Assembly: GCA_002433055.1 (NCBI GenBank)
Contig: DJHJ01000014.1
Coordinates: 191,414-255,413 of the forward strand
Length of the DNA: 64,000 nt
Reading direction: 5' to 3'
From: Acidobacteriia bacterium UBA6623
Lineage (GTDB): Bacteria; Acidobacteriota; Terriglobia; Bryobacterales; UBA6623
Position numbers and translations under genes: made by a program. The first letter of the stretch is position 1, and every line of letters begins with the position of its first letter. Positions 92 through 9,758 of the stretch are shown here, one piece after another. Below the pieces are notes generated by a model that saw nothing but the letters and a program-made list of their open reading frames with translations, was not told the origin of the DNA and made no database searches.

Positions 92-166
92 GCGGGAGTA
101 GTTCAGCGGTAGAACGTCAGCTTCCCAAGCTGAATGTCGCGGGTTCGATCCCCGTCTCCCGCTCCA
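92..166 (+). tRNA. tRNA-Gly (anticodon CCC) with encoded CCA
   Basis: 75-nt cloverleaf read by eye. Acceptor GCGGGAG/CUCCCGC; D-arm GUUC-AGCGGUA-GAAC; anticodon arm UCAGC-UUCCCAA-GCUGA (anticodon CCC). It has a 5-nt variable loop, T-arm GCGGG-UUCGAUC-CCCGU, discriminator U and a genomic CCA. Confidence 0.93.
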
Positions 167-2583: not shown

Positions 2584-4374
2584 ATGTGGCTTAGAAGTTT
2601 GATCCTATTTGTTGGTTTGTCCAATTTTGGATTGGCAGTACTCCTTGCCGAGGAACTTTTTCCCTTGGAGGCAGTGAAGACTGGAATGATGGGTACGGGC
2701 CAAACCGTATTTCAAGGACGTAAGGTAGAAGAATTTCAAGTGGAGATCCTTGGTGTGCTTAGGAATGTTGGACCGAAACAGTCCATGATCTTAGCTCGAC
2801 TCAAAGGGGAACCACTAGACAAGACCGGTGTAATTGCAGGGATGAGCGGAAGCCCCATTTATCTTGACGGCAAACTAGCCGGAGCCGTAGCCTTCACTTT
2901 TCCATTTTCAAAAGAGCCGATTGCAGGCATCCGTCCAATCGTGGAAATGATCAACCAGGACAAAAAAGGGCTGCACCAGTCAACACCCGATGAAACTACA
3001 CTAGCGGTATTTGCGAGCAGCCTAATAGGAGAAGGCTCTGAGCTTCTTGGTGCTGATTTACCTACGTCGCCTCCACCTGTTTTTTCTGGCGAGGCAAAGT
3101 TGATTCCTATCGTAACACCAGTCAATCTTGCTGGATTTTCTAGCCGGACTCTCGACGTTTTCGGGTCTCGTTTGCAAGAGTTGGGATTGGAGCCAGTACA
3201 AGGAATAGCAGGTGGTCGACTAGGAGAATCGCATCCTGACGAAGAGAAACTGAGACCCGGGTCGATGATTTCAGTCGCTCTGATCCGTGGCGACTTCGAG
3301 ATGAGTGCCGCAGGCACGGTGACCTATATAAGTGGCCGGCGTTTGTATGCTTTCGGTCATCCCTTCCTGTCAAGTGGTTCTGTTGAGCTCCCCTTTTCTG
3401 CAGCAGAAGTAGTGACGCTTGTGCCCAATTTGAGCAATTCATTTAAGATCTCAGAAAGTGGTTCTCTCCTGGGAACGATTGTCAATGATCACGCAGGTGG
3501 ATTGACTGGCATCGTTGGACAAATGCCTAGTCTTACATCCGTGCGGTTGCGTCTGAAATGGAACCGCGGGATAGAAGATTATTCCTTTGAATTGGTGCAA
3601 GATCGCCTGCTTACGCCTTACTTGCTACAGATGGCTCTCTTTTCTTCTATTGATGCAACTCATCGGCGGATCGGTGCCTCCACGTTACGTATACGTGGAA
3701 AAGCTCGTTTTGGTGAGGGTCTCCCCCCTCTGTTACTCGATAATGTTTTTTCTGAACCAACAAACACAGCTCTTTCGGCTGCTACATCTACTTCCTCGGT
3801 GCTGTACCATGTCTTACTCAACAAAAACATCACCCTAGAGGAGATAGATCTTGCTATTGAGGCTGATGACCACGAGAAATGGGCTGAGATTGACCGTGTC
3901 TGGACGGATAAGGTGAGTGCGCGAATTGGTGAAACTGTTGAATTGTTTGTTGCGCTGAGGGGTGCTGATGGAAAGGAATACATAGAAAGTCTTCAGTATC
4001 GTATTCCAAAAGGCATTCTGCCCGGTGTGTATTATCTGACTTTTACTAATGCGGAAGTGGTCAATCGTATGGAACGAAAAAACTTTCTCGGGCTTCGGCG
4101 CACCAAGGAGCCTGCGCAGCTGATTAACGCCCTTAACCGTTCGCGACAGAACGACCGATTGTATATTCGCATGTGGCGGCCTGAAGCTGCTTTTCGCGTA
4201 AACACCGAAGCGCTGCCGTCCTTGCCAGCTTCGGTAGCCACAATACTGGCGTCTGCGGCGTCCGGTGGATCTTTGTCACAGGATTGGCGTTCAGTACCGG
4301 TAGAACTGAAGCTACATCCTGGACTAGGAGTAATCCGCGGGAATGTTACTACACAAGTAAATATACAACCATGA
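2584..4374 (+). CDS. Secreted SpoIVB-like serine peptidase (S55 family) with long C-terminal extension
   Basis: Signal peptide, then a GMSGSPIYLDGKLAGAV serine block (codons 2839-2856). A later AAGTVTYISGRRLYAFGHPF block has its His codon at 3358-3360. Both resemble SpoIVB blocks as I recall them. Confidence 0.7.
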   Translation: MWLRSLILFVGLSNFGLAVLLAEELFPLEAVKTGMMGTGQTVFQGRKVEEFQVEILGVLRNVGPKQSMILARLKGEPLDKTGVIAGMSGSPIYLDGKLAGAVAFTFPFSKEPIAGIRPIVEMINQDKKGLHQSTPDETTLAVFASSLIGEGSELLGADLPTSPPPVFSGEAKLIPIVTPVNLAGFSSRTLDVFGSRLQELGLEPVQGIAGGRLGESHPDEEKLRPGSMISVALIRGDFEMSAAGTVTYISGRRLYAFGHPFLSSGSVELPFSAAEVVTLVPNLSNSFKISESGSLLGTIVNDHAGGLTGIVGQMPSLTSVRLRLKWNRGIEDYSFELVQDRLLTPYLLQMALFSSIDATHRRIGASTLRIRGKARFGEGLPPLLLDNVFSEPTNTALSAATSTSSVLYHVLLNKNITLEEIDLAIEADDHEKWAEIDRVWTDKVSARIGETVELFVALRGADGKEYIESLQYRIPKGILPGVYYLTFTNAEVVNRMERKNFLGLRRTKEPAQLINALNRSRQNDRLYIRMWRPEAAFRVNTEALPSLPASVATILASAASGGSLSQDWRSVPVELKLHPGLGVIRGNVTTQVNIQP

Positions 4375-6755
4375 CCACTGCGTTCATCCCCACTTTTCAT
4401 CTGAGATCTCTTGCCATATATGGCATGGTGTTTGGGTTGATTGTTTTTCTCCCTGTGCCGGTAGTGGGTTCTTCTACACAGATTTGGGAACTCAACGAGT
4501 ATGAAGACTTTCTATTAGGAGAGTTTGAGAACGTTTCACTTCTTCAGTCGGGTGCATTATCACCAGTACCACAACTTACTTCTCTTTTTGATTCTGACCA
4601 GCCAGTAATTTGGACAGTAGCGGCAAGTGTTGATGGAACTACCTATATTGGCACCGGCCATCAAGGCAAGATATATCGATTGGGCAGGGACGGCAAAGTT
4701 AATTTGTTTTGGACTGCCCCGGAGATTGAAATCTTTGCTCTGGCTGCGGGTCCTGACGGGGAAGTCTATGCCGGAACTTCTCCGAACGGTAAACTGTACC
4801 GGATTACTAGCCAGGGATTGGCGAAGGAGATTTTTGACCCTGAGCAAACATATATTTGGTCACTCGTGGTTGTTCCTGCCCCGACCTCTGAAAGACATAA
4901 TGGACCAACAGTCTATATGGCTACTGGCAGCGAAGGGAAAATATACAAAGTAAAGGCATCTGGACAGGGGCGGGTTTTTGCCGAAACCAAACAACGACAT
5001 GTTGTCAGCCTAGCTCTTGATGCTAGCGGTCAGTTACTGGCCGGCACGGATCCGAATGGGATCGTTTACCGAATCGATCCTAAAGGAAAGATATTTGCAC
5101 TGCATGATGCGGATCAACCAGAAGTACGTTCTTTGCAGGTTGCTCCCAATGGCGACATCTACGCGGCTGCGATGGGAAGCATCGTCTCTCAGATCAACCA
5201 AAGAGTCTCATCTTTTGCATCTACTTCAGTCGGTGCTACGGCCACAATTGCAGTGAACACAGAATCGACAGGTCCAACACCTCCGAAAATTTCTCCTGAC
5301 GTCCAATCGGCGCTCAACGTTGTCCAGCCTGTGGTTGCTTACCCAGGAATGGAACGTTCGGTTTTGCTTCGAATTCGATTGAATCAAGGTGTTGAGAAGC
5401 TTTGGTCTTCGAGTGAAGAGAATATTCTAGCAGTCGGCATTCTGACCGATGAGACTGTTGTAGGTTTTGATAATACGAATGATTTAACTACTAGGACACG
5501 GATTCTTTTTGCTACTGATCAGAAAGGGAGAATCTATGAACTGGGCAAATCGCGCCGTGGTACTCAAAGACAAGTACACTTGGTGACCGAGAGTGGGCAT
5601 CAACAAATCACACAACTGGCGAGAGATGGAGAAGGTTTGCTTGTTGCCTCTGCCCATTCGGCTGGTCTAAGTCGCTTCAAAAAACATGGAAAGATTGTGG
5701 GAGTCTATAAAAGTGCCATTCACGATGCCAAGGCTTTTGCCCGTTGGGGGCGATTGACATGGGAAGGAAAGGACGCCGATTTGGAGCGTGTGGCGATCGT
5801 AACTCGTAGTGGAAATTCCGCAGTTCCAGATGCGAGCTGGAGCGAGTGGTCTGAGGAAATTAGAGGTGCAATTGATTTGGAAGGCGCAGGAACCTTTGCA
5901 GGCAATGTAAAATCACCGCCAGCACGTTATATACAGTGGAAGGTTACCCTTGCAAGCAAAAATCAAATTACTCCTCTGCTGCGCAGGGTGCGTTTGGTTT
6001 ATTTGCCTCGCAACTCTCCACCACACATTACCGATCTGAAGGTTACGGCATCACAGGAAAGAAGTACTGTGCCTTCTGTGAGCTCAACAACCTCGATGTC
6101 TTCCGGCTCCAAAACTGATTCAGCATATAGCATTACGGTAGCCGCATCAGGTTCATCTGCTCCTACTACTGCAAAAGCAACCCCACAAACTGTTTTGGGT
6201 GGAGATTCTCGAAAAAACATGAAAATCTCTTGGGAGGCAGGAGACCCTGACGGAGACAAGCTAACTTCAGTAGTTTCTTTTCGTGAAATTGAGGACTCAG
6301 CATGGAAAGTCATAAAAAAGGATATCGAAGGTAGCTACGTTTTTCTCGATAGTGAAACGCTGGCAGATGGGGTATACCGATTTCAAGTTGTGGTTTCTGA
6401 TCGGACTGAAAATCCCACCTCAGTTTCGTATGAAGCCAAGGAGATTAGTGAGCCGGTTTTGGTTGATCATACGCCACCCAGTATTGGACGGATAGAGATC
6501 AACAGGCATAATGCAGTAGCCTTTGAAGCAATAGATAGGGATTCAGCCTTGGTCATTGCCGAGTATGCCATTGATGCTGGAGAGTGGATCCCAATTTATC
6601 CCGTGGATGGGATTCTTGATTCCCGTCGTGAAAGCTTCTTGATCCGATTAGAAGACCTGCCAAGTACTGAACATTTACTGACAGTACGTGTACGTGACCG
6701 ATCAGGTAATTCGGGGTTGGGCAAAGTGTCGATCCCAAATTCAGATCAGCAATAG
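4371..6755 (+). CDS. Secreted/membrane-anchored beta-propeller-like repeat protein with C-terminal Ig/Fn3-like domains (function unknown)
   Basis: ATG at 4371 overlaps the upstream stop (ATGA) and is followed by a hydrophobic signal/anchor (LAIYGMVFGLIVFLPVPVVG). Repeated units of about 40 aa follow: GTGHQGKIYRLGRDG, GTSPNGKLYRITSQG, ATGSEGKIYKVKASG, GTDPNGIVYRIDPKG. The C-terminal part has WEAGDPDGD and DGVYRFQVVVSD type Ig-like signatures. The longer ORF from 4284 is probably not used. Confidence 0.6.
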   Translation: MTTAFIPTFHLRSLAIYGMVFGLIVFLPVPVVGSSTQIWELNEYEDFLLGEFENVSLLQSGALSPVPQLTSLFDSDQPVIWTVAASVDGTTYIGTGHQGKIYRLGRDGKVNLFWTAPEIEIFALAAGPDGEVYAGTSPNGKLYRITSQGLAKEIFDPEQTYIWSLVVVPAPTSERHNGPTVYMATGSEGKIYKVKASGQGRVFAETKQRHVVSLALDASGQLLAGTDPNGIVYRIDPKGKIFALHDADQPEVRSLQVAPNGDIYAAAMGSIVSQINQRVSSFASTSVGATATIAVNTESTGPTPPKISPDVQSALNVVQPVVAYPGMERSVLLRIRLNQGVEKLWSSSEENILAVGILTDETVVGFDNTNDLTTRTRILFATDQKGRIYELGKSRRGTQRQVHLVTESGHQQITQLARDGEGLLVASAHSAGLSRFKKHGKIVGVYKSAIHDAKAFARWGRLTWEGKDADLERVAIVTRSGNSAVPDASWSEWSEEIRGAIDLEGAGTFAGNVKSPPARYIQWKVTLASKNQITPLLRRVRLVYLPRNSPPHITDLKVTASQERSTVPSVSSTTSMSSGSKTDSAYSITVAASGSSAPTTAKATPQTVLGGDSRKNMKISWEAGDPDGDKLTSVVSFREIEDSAWKVIKKDIEGSYVFLDSETLADGVYRFQVVVSDRTENPTSVSYEAKEISEPVLVDHTPPSIGRIEINRHNAVAFEAIDRDSALVIAEYAIDAGEWIPIYPVDGILDSRRESFLIRLEDLPSTEHLLTVRVRDRSGNSGLGKVSIPNSDQQ

Positions 6756-6787: not shown

Positions 6788-8497
6788 GTGCGCATGCGAA
6801 ACCCAAAGACACTACGCAGTTACCAGTGGTTTGCTGGCGAGGAATATGAAAACTTTGCTCGGCGAGCAGCTCTTCGATCAGAAGGGCTCACCCCAGAGAT
6901 ATTTTCCGGCAAGCCTGTCATAGGTATATGTAATTCGTGGAGTGAGTTGACCAACTGCAACGCTCATCTGCGCCAAGTAGCTGAATCTGTTAAGCGTGGT
7001 GTTTGGTCGGCGGGTGGCGTGCCGCTGGAATTTCCTACGATTTCCCTGGGTGAACTCTTCATGAAGCCGACTACGATGCTATTTCGTAATCTCATGTCAA
7101 TGGATGTCGAGGAATCAATCTCTGCTAACCCTATAGACGGGGTAGTCCTTCTTTCAGGTTGCGACAAGACGACACCTGCACAACTGATGGGGGCTGCTAG
7201 TGCTGATCTTCCCGCCATTATGGTAACGGGGGGGCCGATGTTGAGCGGACGCTGGGGCTCAAAAGCATTGGGGTCGGGAACTGATGGGCGGCGTGTGTTT
7301 GAAGAGCTCAAGGCAGGAAACCTTACGGAGGAACAAATTTGCGAGATTGAAAGTTGTATTACGCGTAGTGTCGGTCACTGCACTGTTATGGGTACAGCTT
7401 CGACGATGGCGTCCATGGCTGAAGCCTTGGGGATGACGTTGCCTGGCAACGCTGCGATTCCTGCTCCTGATTCTCGGCGCTATCAACTTGCCGAAGCCAG
7501 TGGCCGACGAATTGTTGAGATGGTCTTTGAAGACCTTCGTCCTTCAGCACTTTTAACGAAAGATGCCTTTGAGAACGCTATACGGGCTGATATGGCTATT
7601 GGCGGATCAACCAATGCAGTAGTTCATTTAATAGCTATTGCGGGACGGCTAGGCGTAAATTTGACCCTCGATGATTTTGACCGTCTTTCACGTGATACCC
7701 CATTTATTAGTAACGTAAAGCCATCTGGGGAGTACCTAATGGAAGATTTTTATTACGCTGGTGGATTGCCCGCCGTTATGAAAGAGATTCTTCCGCTACT
7801 GCATGACCTACCGACTGCAAATGGCAAGACGGTCGTTGACAATTTCAGCGGGGCGAAATGTTCGAACCCTGATGTAATAAGTACTCTTGAGAACCCTCTC
7901 GGCACAGAAGGTGGCACGGCCATCCTTTATGGGAACTTGGCTCCTTCGGGTGCAGTTATCAAACAAACGGCAGCTTCATCACATCTGCTAACTCATCGAG
8001 GCAAAGCCGTGGTGTTCGATGACTACAGAAAACTCAAGACTCACATAGACGACGATGATTTGGACATTGATGAGAATTCTGTATTAGTGCTTCAAAATGC
8101 AGGACCAAAGGGTGGTCCAGGGTTTCCTGAATGGGGACACTTACCCATCCCTGCCAAATTGTTGAAACGCGGCGTGCGAGATATAGTCCGAATCAGCGAT
8201 GCTCGTATGAGTGGTACGAGTTTTGGAACAGATGTTCTACATGTGTCTCCTGAATCGGCCGTAGGAGGCCCTTTGGGAGCTGTGCAGACAGGTGATGAGA
8301 TCGAGCTTGATGTCCCGAATCGAAAACTGGAGTTGCGAGTTGACGACAACGAGATCAAGAGGCGACTGGCTGACAGAAGAGCAGTTCCTGTGCACTATGA
8401 ACGTGGCTACGGCAAGCTTTTTCTTGATCAAGTAACGCAAGCCCATGAAGGATGTGACTTTGGGTTTTTGCGCTCCATAGATAAGGGAAGACGATAG
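6788..8497 (+). CDS. IlvD/Edd-family dehydratase (sugar-acid dehydratase-like branch)
   Basis: 569 aa with typical IlvD/Edd blocks: GICNSWSELTNCNAH, LLSGCDKTTPAQLMGA, GHCTVMGTASTM, AIGGSTNAVVHL, SDARMSGTSFG. The N-terminus LRSYQWF resembles the arabinonate/xylonate dehydratase type. Confidence 0.85.
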   Translation: MRMRNPKTLRSYQWFAGEEYENFARRAALRSEGLTPEIFSGKPVIGICNSWSELTNCNAHLRQVAESVKRGVWSAGGVPLEFPTISLGELFMKPTTMLFRNLMSMDVEESISANPIDGVVLLSGCDKTTPAQLMGAASADLPAIMVTGGPMLSGRWGSKALGSGTDGRRVFEELKAGNLTEEQICEIESCITRSVGHCTVMGTASTMASMAEALGMTLPGNAAIPAPDSRRYQLAEASGRRIVEMVFEDLRPSALLTKDAFENAIRADMAIGGSTNAVVHLIAIAGRLGVNLTLDDFDRLSRDTPFISNVKPSGEYLMEDFYYAGGLPAVMKEILPLLHDLPTANGKTVVDNFSGAKCSNPDVISTLENPLGTEGGTAILYGNLAPSGAVIKQTAASSHLLTHRGKAVVFDDYRKLKTHIDDDDLDIDENSVLVLQNAGPKGGPGFPEWGHLPIPAKLLKRGVRDIVRISDARMSGTSFGTDVLHVSPESAVGGPLGAVQTGDEIELDVPNRKLELRVDDNEIKRRLADRRAVPVHYERGYGKLFLDQVTQAHEGCDFGFLRSIDKGRR

Positions 8498-8510: not shown

Positions 8511-9758
8511 ATGACAAAAGCGCCCCTTTTCAATAATCTAAAAACCTTCTTTTCCTCAATTGCTCCAGGTATTTTTTTGGTTGGCTATGTCATCGGTACA
8601 GGTAGCGTCACGACAATGGCTGCTGCCGGAGCAAAGTACGGCTTGTCACTGATATGGACTAGCGTAGTAGCTTCACTTTTTACCTACGTCATGTTTGTGG
8701 CGATTAGCAAGGTGACAATTGTTACCGGTAAAACATTGCTGCAAAATTTCCGTGTGCATTTCGGAGCTGCCCCCGCAATCTTCATCATGTTGGGGTTAAT
8801 GACCACCCAGATTGCTTCCATCATAGGAGTCATGGGCATTGTCTCGGATGTGGTGCAGGAGGCGACCATATTCTTCACGCCGAACGGTATAGGTATTCCA
8901 CCTTTCTATTCAGCATTGTTTTTTTCACTGCTGCTGTATGGGCTTTTTTGGATTGGTCGCCACCAAGTATTTTTGAAGGTCTTAGCAGTTCTGGTCACCA
9001 TGATGGCGTTTTCGTTTATAGCAACCATGCTAGTGGTGATACCTGATCTGACATCATTTCTGAGTGGCTTGATTCCCTCAGTCCCTGCGGAAGGGAATTC
9101 ACAACTCCTGATCGCGAGCATGGTAGGGACAACGATGGCTGGAGTGTGTCTTATTACGCGAAGTACCCTCGTGATTGAGAAAGGCTGGACACAGGCGGAC
9201 TTTAAAACTGAGCATAGAGATGCGTTTTTTGCAGTTACAGTTATGCTCTTTATCAACATAGCTATTATGGCTGCGGCCGCTGGAACTCTTTTTGTACAAG
9301 GCATGGAGGTGCGTCATGCGGTTGATATGATCAGGGCATTGGAGCCTTTCGCTGGTCCACTGGCTGCGACGTTGTTTGTGGTGGGAATCATTTCGGCCGG
9401 ACTCTCATCTCTGTTCCCCAACTATTTGCTGGGCATGTGGTTGATTTCAGATTATCTAAACCTTCCCAGGAATCCGCGTCTCCTGGCTTATAGAGGTCTC
9501 GTGGCTGTATGTGTTCTGACCGGTCTAGTGATCCCAGTTTTTGGTGGTAGCCCAATTGCGATTATGATCGCTTCGCAAGCGATTAGCCCAGTTGTTATGC
9601 CTGCCATGGTAGTTCTCACAACTCTACTGCTGTTAAAAAAAGATGTTGCGGATTTCAAAAACTCACGACTGATGAAAGTAGGTTTATTTGCCACTGTTTT
9701 GTTTGCGTTTTACATGCTCTACACTGCTGTGTTGGGATTTGTAGAATTGACACGATGA
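8511..9758 (+). CDS. Nramp-fold (COG1914-like) permease lacking the canonical DPGN metal site
   Basis: 415 aa polytopic membrane protein. The N-terminal block APGIFLVGYVIGTGSVTTMAAAGAKYG aligns by eye to Nramp TM1 (GPGFLVAVGYIDPGNxAT), but Asp and Asn are replaced. Confidence 0.6.
   Translation: MTKAPLFNNLKTFFSSIAPGIFLVGYVIGTGSVTTMAAAGAKYGLSLIWTSVVASLFTYVMFVAISKVTIVTGKTLLQNFRVHFGAAPAIFIMLGLMTTQIASIIGVMGIVSDVVQEATIFFTPNGIGIPPFYSALFFSLLLYGLFWIGRHQVFLKVLAVLVTMMAFSFIATMLVVIPDLTSFLSGLIPSVPAEGNSQLLIASMVGTTMAGVCLITRSTLVIEKGWTQADFKTEHRDAFFAVTVMLFINIAIMAAAAGTLFVQGMEVRHAVDMIRALEPFAGPLAATLFVVGIISAGLSSLFPNYLLGMWLISDYLNLPRNPRLLAYRGLVAVCVLTGLVIPVFGGSPIAIMIASQAISPVVMPAMVVLTTLLLLKKDVADFKNSRLMKVGLFATVLFAFYMLYTAVLGFVELTR

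Follow-up and report, generated by a model that had tools for sequence, protein, structure and literature searches.

A gene on the forward strand at 2584..4374 of a 64,000-nucleotide stretch of DNA from Acidobacteriia bacterium UBA6623 (contig DJHJ01000014.1, positions 191,414 to 255,413 of the forward strand; the whole stretch is referred to here as the window) encodes a 596-residue protein whose two halves are homologous to the two β-barrels of the sporulation protease SpoIVB, in swapped order. The protein is probably a catalytically competent, circularly permuted serine protease of the S55/chymotrypsin fold. On balance, the arrangement appears to be a natural circular permutation of the PA-clan fold, with the serine barrel first and the order Ser-His-Asp along the chain, fixed in ~3,700 clusters mainly from Acidobacteriota and probably derived from an S55 ancestor through duplication and deletion. 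The protein is best filed as a permuted variant of the S55/PA-clan lineage and not as a SpoIVB orthologue, because a collinear match, the cut-off of the TIGR02860 model, a PDZ domain and the order His-Asp-Ser all fail. Automated labels of the type "S55 domain-containing" are already attached to members of this family. No description of a natural barrel-swapped PA-clan protease, or of a swapped order within S55, was found in the literature searched, and to our knowledge none is known.

Gene model and predicted catalytic residues

The extent of the gene is supported by the list of open reading frames, by an upstream in-frame stop and by full-length collinear homologues. The gene ends with a TGA at 4372-4374, and an in-frame TGA at 2557-2559 lies 9 codons 5' of its ATG. 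The 194 bases 5' of the frame (2390-2583) form a divergent spacer, beyond which a cytochrome c peroxidase gene is encoded on the other strand. Because of this stop codon and the divergent spacer, the frame cannot be extended upstream; a corrected gene model can bring in no further His or Asp ahead of the serine, the outcome that an earlier reading of the DNA from its letters alone (the sequence-only reading) had named as one that would speak against its proposal, and the homologues have the same start. A Sec signal peptide is predicted for residues 1-22 (2584..2649, +; MWLRSLILFVGLSNFGLAVLLA/EE) from the hydrophobic N-terminus followed by small residues, and in the AlphaFold2 model this region consists of a helix at residues 2-15 and a low-confidence stretch at residues 16-22.

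The GMSGSP motif spans 2839..2856 (+), with the predicted nucleophile Ser88 at 2845-2847, which aligns with the first Ser of the SpoIVB GMSGSP motif (Ser378). His259 of the AFGH block is encoded at 3358-3360 and Asp302 at 3487-3489. The histidines of the protein are residues 131, 217, 259, 303, 360, 409, 430 and 578, with none N-terminal to Ser88. The spacing from Ser88 to His259 is 171 residues with the serine first, and the predicted catalytic residues follow one another as Ser88, His259 and Asp302, an order that departs from the His, Asp, Ser of clan PA. The sequence-only reading had placed the serine block at these codons about 90 residues from the N-terminus, had seen no histidine ahead of it (the first is residue 131) and had put the His codon about 170 residues after the serine, all of which was borne out by codon check.

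Homology of the serine half with the SpoIVB C-terminal barrel

The serine block lies in a barrel with a terminal helix (residues 29-129; 2668..2970, +), a homologue of the C-terminal barrel in SpoIVB and the chymotrypsin fold, as indicated by Pfam, by the SpoIVB structure in the PDB (9lnf), by hhalign and by the AlphaFold2 model. The Pfam family Peptidase_S55 (PF05580) matches residues 40-106 at profile positions 126-194 of 210, with a score of 39.8 bits against a cut-off of 25 and an E-value of 6.4e-10. The NCBIfam equivalog model for SpoIVB, TIGR02860, scores 37.4 bits over model positions 313-380 of 402, below its cut-off of 305 bits. No full-length collinear S55 match in which the His block precedes the Ser block was found; the Pfam match is one partial stretch, and where a single collinear hit would speak against a permutation, both Pfam and NCBIfam see the Ser half only. 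By sequence, SpoIVB (9lnf) is the sole solved relative, and its residues 232-313 align with residues 40-121 of the protease.

For profile comparison, the canonical set consisted of 53 full-length SpoIVB proteins recovered from metagenome loci (L081-L160); SpoIVB alignment positions follow the protein of locus L082, and adding 45 gives the Bacillus subtilis numbering. The family profile was built from the query and 131 diverse representatives (132 sequences), which are 27-41% identical to the query and were picked by profile score, not by motif. With hhalign, family residues 29-106 correspond to SpoIVB 273-351 with a probability of 98.6% and an E-value of 1.3e-15. The segment ahead of the serine block, which had been likened by eye to the region preceding the serine in SpoIVB, was rightly recognized, with the match starting at family residue 29.

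Homology of the histidine half with the SpoIVB N-terminal barrel

For the second barrel (residues 226-312; 3259..3519, +), which carries His259 and Asp302, hhalign and profile alignment with dynamic programming show homology to the SpoIVB N-terminal barrel, with the AlphaFold2 model and Foldseek as further evidence. In the comparison of the full profiles, hhalign pairs family residues 239-339 with SpoIVB 169-300 (E 1.8e-4), in swapped order relative to the match of the Ser half. The profile of the second barrel alone aligns family residues 239-316 with SpoIVB 169-259 over 75 columns (probability 71%, E 3.9e-5), and His259 falls on SpoIVB His236, the histidine of the GALGH motif. The real score of 36.4 stands above all controls: the reversed profile gave an E-value of 0.18, 100 column shuffles gave a mean score of 14.2 (sd 2.8, maximum 23.4) and 100 block shuffles reached a maximum of 26.1. 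A split profile match in reversed order, predicted from the letters alone, was thus obtained with the diverse profile (E 1.3e-15 for the Ser half and 3.9e-5 for the His half). The SpoIVB layout on which that prediction drew is also right, since the 53 SpoIVB sequences have the GMSGSP serine near the C-terminus and 142 residues after the histidine of GALGH. The proposal of a circular permutation of two chymotrypsin-type barrels is supported by the swapped-order homology and by the margin over the controls.

Profile alignment by dynamic programming against column shuffles found two segments of the second barrel that resemble the SpoIVB N-terminal barrel. Family residues 296-311 gave a z-score of 3.8 (0 of 300 shuffles as high) and residues 244-259 (GTVTYISGRRLYAFGH compared with GTMTFF..KKYGALGH) a z-score of 3.3 (1 of 200 shuffles). 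The same method gave non-significant z-scores of 1.2-1.8 for the second-barrel region (residues 222-318 and 222-295) against the SpoIVB C-terminal barrel, and 0.4 for residues 222-318 against the SpoIVB PDZ domain. Following the histidine, SpoIVB has the motif [LI]-G-x-[IV]-x-x-N-[TS]-x-[FY]-G-[IV]-[FY]-G and the protease family [VLM]-G-x-[IV]-x-x-D-R-x-[TA]-[GA]-[IV]-x-G; in the shared pattern G-x-[IV]-x-x-[DN]-x3-[GA]-[IV]-x-G, the invariant positions are equally spaced in both.

Less diverse profiles gave a partial picture. With the first 51 close homologues, hhalign recovered the Ser barrel clearly (probability 98.5%). With alignments of 51 and 131 sequences it also found the block of residues 289-315 out of order (E 6e-4 to 3e-3), paired with the SpoIVB segment upstream of the SpoIVB Ser block; the His block was not found, and because these alignments missed it a more diverse profile was needed. 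Against PDB sequences, the profile of the 51 close homologues matched SpoIVB through the Ser half only; its match to CtpB (E 0.83) was dismissed as noise. A custom SpoIVB hidden Markov model (HMM) gave weak second matches in family members at about residues 250-370, mostly about 280-320, with E-values of 0.02-8 that are individually insignificant. In 21 family members, the middle and His region was scanned in isolation against Pfam, with no relevant match.

Predicted structure

The AlphaFold2 model of the full protein has a mean predicted local distance difference test score (pLDDT) of 80.4 and a predicted template modelling score of 0.81, with disorder limited to the end of the signal peptide, residues 129-171 and residues 214-220. 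The first six-stranded unit is formed by residues 36-42, 48-63, 66-74, 91-94, 97-105 and 113-118 and is followed by a helix at residues 119-129. The GMSGSP motif lies between its strands 3 and 4, and the helix-ended unit shows the pattern of the chymotrypsin C-terminal barrel. The second six-stranded unit comprises residues 228-236, 239-250, 253-257, 269-281, 286-303 and 306-311, with His259 two residues past its third strand and Asp302 closing the fifth, immediately ahead of the sixth. In the model, these strand positions match those of His57 and Asp102 in the chymotrypsin N-terminal barrel.

A Foldseek search of the full model against the PDB returned the HtrA-type proteases MucD (8k2y), Rv3671c (3lt3) and DegS (3b8j) with a probability of ~1.0 over 111-121 columns; their template modelling scores of ~0.4, normalized to the target, correspond to one barrel, and the search found no collinear two-barrel match. 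A separate model of residues 172-345 has a pLDDT of 69 overall and 74-92 in the barrel, and it matches SplA, SplB, Esp and DegQ with probabilities of 0.85-0.99. The top match of this model is coronavirus Nsp9, a small single-domain protein of 102 residues and a β-barrel long noted as resembling one barrel of chymotrypsin-type proteases.

Size, distribution and conservation of the family

The layout is not a peculiarity of this protein. More than 7,700 homologues at 90% clustering were found in the protein database, ~560-650 residues long and aligned with the query over its whole length. Their names are "hypothetical" or "SpoIVB peptidase S55 domain-containing", with Acidobacteria, Bryobacteraceae and Solibacter as the source organisms. 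An HMM search of 1.84 billion representatives found 8,621 proteins with E<=1e-3, and 3,695 of these (50%-identity clusters) had E<=1e-30; nearly all of the best 150 matches are collinear with the full family profile. The survey of homologues that had been proposed from the sequence shows the same order and length throughout the 3,695 clusters as well as in the homologues of the protein database. At least 597 genomes carry the family in a scan of one genome per species. The best 80 of these are all Acidobacteriota (Bryobacterales, other Terriglobia, Blastocatellia/Pyrinomonadaceae and Aminicenantes) except for one metagenome-assembled genome labelled Heliobacteriaceae (L076). One family representative (P0350) comes from a metagenome-assembled genome of candidate division KSB1. 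The KSB1 and Heliobacteriaceae members may indicate that the family extends beyond Acidobacteriota, or may reflect contaminated bins. The family is very large and uncharacterized and belongs mainly to soil Acidobacteria; S55 proteins have been described as widespread in Acidobacteria by a comparative-genomics study (PMC8841776), and the literature searched held no experimental data on any family member.

Among the 132 sequences of the diverse profile, Ser88, Ser90 and His259 are each conserved in all 132, Asp302 in 131, Asp237 in 130 and Lys288 in 124. All six residues are invariant in a second set of 131 closer sequences; the pattern used to find that set had already selected in part for Ser88 and His259.

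Proposed mechanism and alternative explanations

In the reading we favour, the gene product would be exported by Sec and act as a serine endopeptidase of the SpoIVB lineage (MEROPS S55, clan PA). The first barrel (residues 29-118 and the terminal helix) would supply Ser88 and also, if GMSGSP is analogous to GDSGGP, the oxyanion hole. From there the chain would run through ~45 disordered linker residues and a small α/β unit to the second barrel (residues 226-312), which would supply His259 as the general base and, most probably, Asp302 to orient His259. We infer that the barrels pack in the usual manner, which would place the active site in the cleft between them. The C-terminal part, predicted to consist of helices and an immunoglobulin-like sandwich, and a β-propeller protein encoded directly downstream may bind, gate or serve as substrate.

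Several observations weigh against this reading. The homology of the His half was missed by Pfam, by HMMER and by the shallower profile, and the hhalign probability for it is just 71%. Short windows at His259 also resemble the hairpin that follows the serine in SpoIVB (GAVTHVF), because of the pseudo-symmetry between the two barrels, and ungapped window scans were ambiguous for the His block owing to the same pseudo-symmetry. The Foldseek matches of the second barrel have weak E-values (0.05-0.2) and root mean square deviations of 8-10 Å. Finally, the SpoIVB column aligned with Asp302 holds an invariant Asn in 53 of 53 sequences (N245 in L082, Asn290 in B. subtilis), and only the analogy with chymotrypsin speaks for a catalytic Asp302. 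Part of this would suit a chimera, in which an S55-derived Ser barrel was combined by shuffling with an independently recruited, unrelated β-barrel that happens to supply a histidine, by convergence: Pfam, NCBIfam, HMMER and the 51-sequence profile see nothing around His259, the second region finds weak structural matches, and for a 23-residue window at His259 the Ser-barrel hairpin of SpoIVB is a better-scoring match than the SpoIVB His block. However, the diverse profile aligns 75 columns to the SpoIVB N-terminal barrel with an E-value of 3.9e-5 and outscores the reversed profile and every one of the 200 shuffles. Two distinct blocks also match in the correct order and with the same internal spacing, and the comparisons with the SpoIVB C-terminal barrel and PDZ domain are not significant. 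We consider such a chimera improbable.

The least improbable of the alternatives, although still an unlikely one, keeps the permuted fold and replaces the triad by a Ser-His dyad or by another third residue, with Asp302 in a structural role and Asp237 or Lys288 assisting. The invariant Asn of SpoIVB (53/53) at the Asp302 column, the high conservation of Asp237 (130/132) and Lys288 (124/132), and the SpoIVB crystal structure, in which no acid lies near His236 (PMC12502668), are all compatible with it. On the other side, Asp302 is conserved in 131 of 132 sequences, lies 43 residues past His259 and closes strand 5 in the manner of the His57-Asp102 pair, whereas Asp237 sits in the turn between strands 1 and 2, where SpoIVB also has a conserved Asp, suggesting a shared structural role. 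That the protein is a non-catalytic pseudoprotease, which binds the downstream propeller protein or serves as a scaffold for it, would fit the tight coupling of the two genes, the large C-terminal extension to which no function is assigned and the fact that the family is known from sequence and not from activity. Pseudoenzymes typically lose catalytic residues, whereas here Ser88, His259 and Asp302 are kept in 131-132 of 132 sequences, down to 27% identity, together with the whole GMSGSP oxyanion motif, and we regard this explanation as very improbable. An artefact of gene model or assembly, by which an upstream His barrel was lost through a frameshift or a wrong start, is refuted for practical purposes: no evidence in its support was found, the upstream TGA and divergent spacer leave no room for such a barrel, and independent assemblies yield thousands of homologues that agree in N-terminus and length.

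Comparison with known proteases

The closest known relative is SpoIVB of B. subtilis (S55.001, PF05580, TIGR02860, 9LNF), and MEROPS places S55 in clan PA (PMC3944710). The crystal structure of SpoIVB shows two β-barrel subdomains, in which His236 corresponds to His57 and Ser378 to Ser195 of chymotrypsin; Asp363 is ~24 Å from the active site, with no acid near His236 (PMC12502668). The two proteins share a homologous Ser barrel, in which GMSGSP is followed by a G-A-V strand and the terminal helix, and a homologous His barrel with the blocks G-T-x-T...[AG]-[LF]-G-H and G-x-I-x-x-[DN]-x3-G-[IV]-x-G. Export and the two-barrel chymotrypsin-type fold are also common to both, as predictions in the case of the acidobacterial protein. 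In contrast to SpoIVB, the acidobacterial protease has the two barrels in swapped order, an insert of ~100 residues between them and a C-terminal extension of ~260 residues. SpoIVB carries a PDZ domain N-terminal to its protease domain, whereas none is detectable in the acidobacterial protease, with no Pfam match and z-scores of 0.4-1.1 in profile comparison with the SpoIVB N-terminus and PDZ domain. SpoIVB residues D363, T393 and H394 align with K74, A103 and F104 and have no conserved counterparts in the acidobacterial family, and the invariant Asn290 of SpoIVB stands where the acidobacterial protease has Asp302. Because Asn290 aligns with the invariant Asp302, and because the columns of Asp363, Thr393 and His394 are not conserved in the family, the alignment suggests that Asn290, rather than Asp363 or Thr393, may be the SpoIVB counterpart of chymotrypsin Asp102. 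The hosts also differ: among the named hits they are Acidobacteriota, a phylum not known to sporulate, plus the one KSB1 genome, and the context of a sigma-K pathway is absent.

The HtrA, DegS and MarP (Rv3671c) proteases and the staphylococcal Spl/V8-type proteases (S1, clan PA) provide the best structural matches, each half separately, and the double six-stranded barrel and Ser/His/Asp chemistry predicted here are shared with them. They differ in having the order His, Asp, Ser with the N-terminal barrel first, and they show no detectable sequence similarity to the acidobacterial protease and no collinear two-barrel alignment with it. The connectivity of the chymotrypsin fold can be altered with the active site kept, as in flavivirus NS2B-NS3 and hepatitis C virus NS3-NS4A, in which strands are supplied in trans; these are cases of strand complementation and not of a whole-barrel swap within one chain.

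The order His-Asp-Ser helps to define clan PA, and a large family with swapped barrels implies that the barrels are separable as evolutionary and folding units, which bears on protease engineering and on the old idea that a single barrel was duplicated to give the fold. The Pfam S55 and TIGR02860 models see about one-third of the catalytic domain, which leaves the His/Asp half unrecognized in thousands of acidobacterial proteins whose names read "hypothetical" or "S55 domain-containing". SpoIVB, whose third catalytic residue was left unsettled by the 2025 crystal structure, also gains an evolutionary point of comparison in this family. As a conserved, predicted secreted protease of abundant soil bacteria that is often paired with a propeller protein, the family is a candidate for an undescribed extracytoplasmic proteolytic system.

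Regions between and after the barrels

The two barrels are separated by a variable disordered linker (residues 129-171; 2968..3096, +), with pLDDT below 50 and no alignment consensus, and by a small conserved β-α-β unit (residues 175-213; 3106..3222, +), for which the AlphaFold2 model has strands at 179-183 and 203-206 and a helix at 187-199. Conserved residues of this unit include T178, G184, F193, G201, P204, Q206 and G207. Neither unit nor linker showed similarity to the SpoIVB PDZ domain or to anything else in Pfam and profile comparison, and the idea that the middle unit (residues 172-224) is a PDZ remnant was set aside, as no signal against SpoIVB including its PDZ domain was obtained.

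An extra β-hairpin follows the His barrel (residues 317-338; 3532..3597, +), with strands at 317-326 and 329-338 in the model. Residues 314-338 (3523-3597) bear a weak resemblance to the hairpin that opens the Ser barrel and to its counterpart in the SpoIVB C-terminal barrel (hhalign E 0.02-0.09, not significant); by this likeness, which falls short of significance, the hairpin may be a relic of an origin by tandem duplication and deletion. The C-terminal extension of about 260 residues noticed in the sequence-only reading is indeed present (residues 340-596; 3601..4371, +) and is folded confidently by AlphaFold2 into two long helices and β-rich domains, with no Pfam match in the last 257 residues. 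A weak immunoglobulin-like/MG2-type signal was found at about residues 434-493 (PDB 5x7g, E 0.007; Pfam MG2 in 2 of 16 family members), and residues 508-535 show a recurrent, non-significant likeness to the α2-β6 end of the SpoIVB PDZ domain (E ~0.1).

Neighbouring genes

The gene directly downstream (4371..6755, +) encodes the secreted β-propeller and immunoglobulin-like protein of ~794 residues, and is translationally coupled to the protease gene, its ATG at 4371 overlapping the protease TGA as ATGA. Its product has a signal peptide, a propeller match to PDB 3hxj (E 5e-9), weak matches to Vgb_lyase, SGL and Reg_prop, and weak immunoglobulin-like (Big_13) similarity. Of 74 informative acidobacterial loci, ~50 have a propeller gene as the next gene downstream of the protease gene in the same orientation; Pyrinomonadaceae mostly lack it. 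The propeller protein is likely to be a partner or substrate of the protease. An apparent 1,340-residue fusion of protease and propeller in another locus (L042, 5944-9966) was rejected, as a frameshift lies near the 3' end of the protease gene and the true C-terminus is in another frame. PADLOC defence models matched neither the protease nor the propeller gene, and no other conserved neighbour of the protease gene was found in 80 related loci.

The remaining genes nearby include, on the reverse strand upstream, the di-haem cytochrome c peroxidase gene (1310-2389; Pfam CCP_MauG, E 8e-46) and, on the forward strand, a possible CcmC-like cytochrome c assembly membrane protein (236-970), judged by eye from its translation. 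Downstream of the propeller gene, also on the forward strand, lie genes for a probable dihydroxy-acid dehydratase (6788-8497) and a putative multi-pass membrane transporter (8511-9758). In the 80 related loci none of these four genes is syntenic with the protease gene. A tRNA-Gly(CCC) gene is located at 92-166 (+), and the open reading frame that overlaps it (52-258) is spurious.

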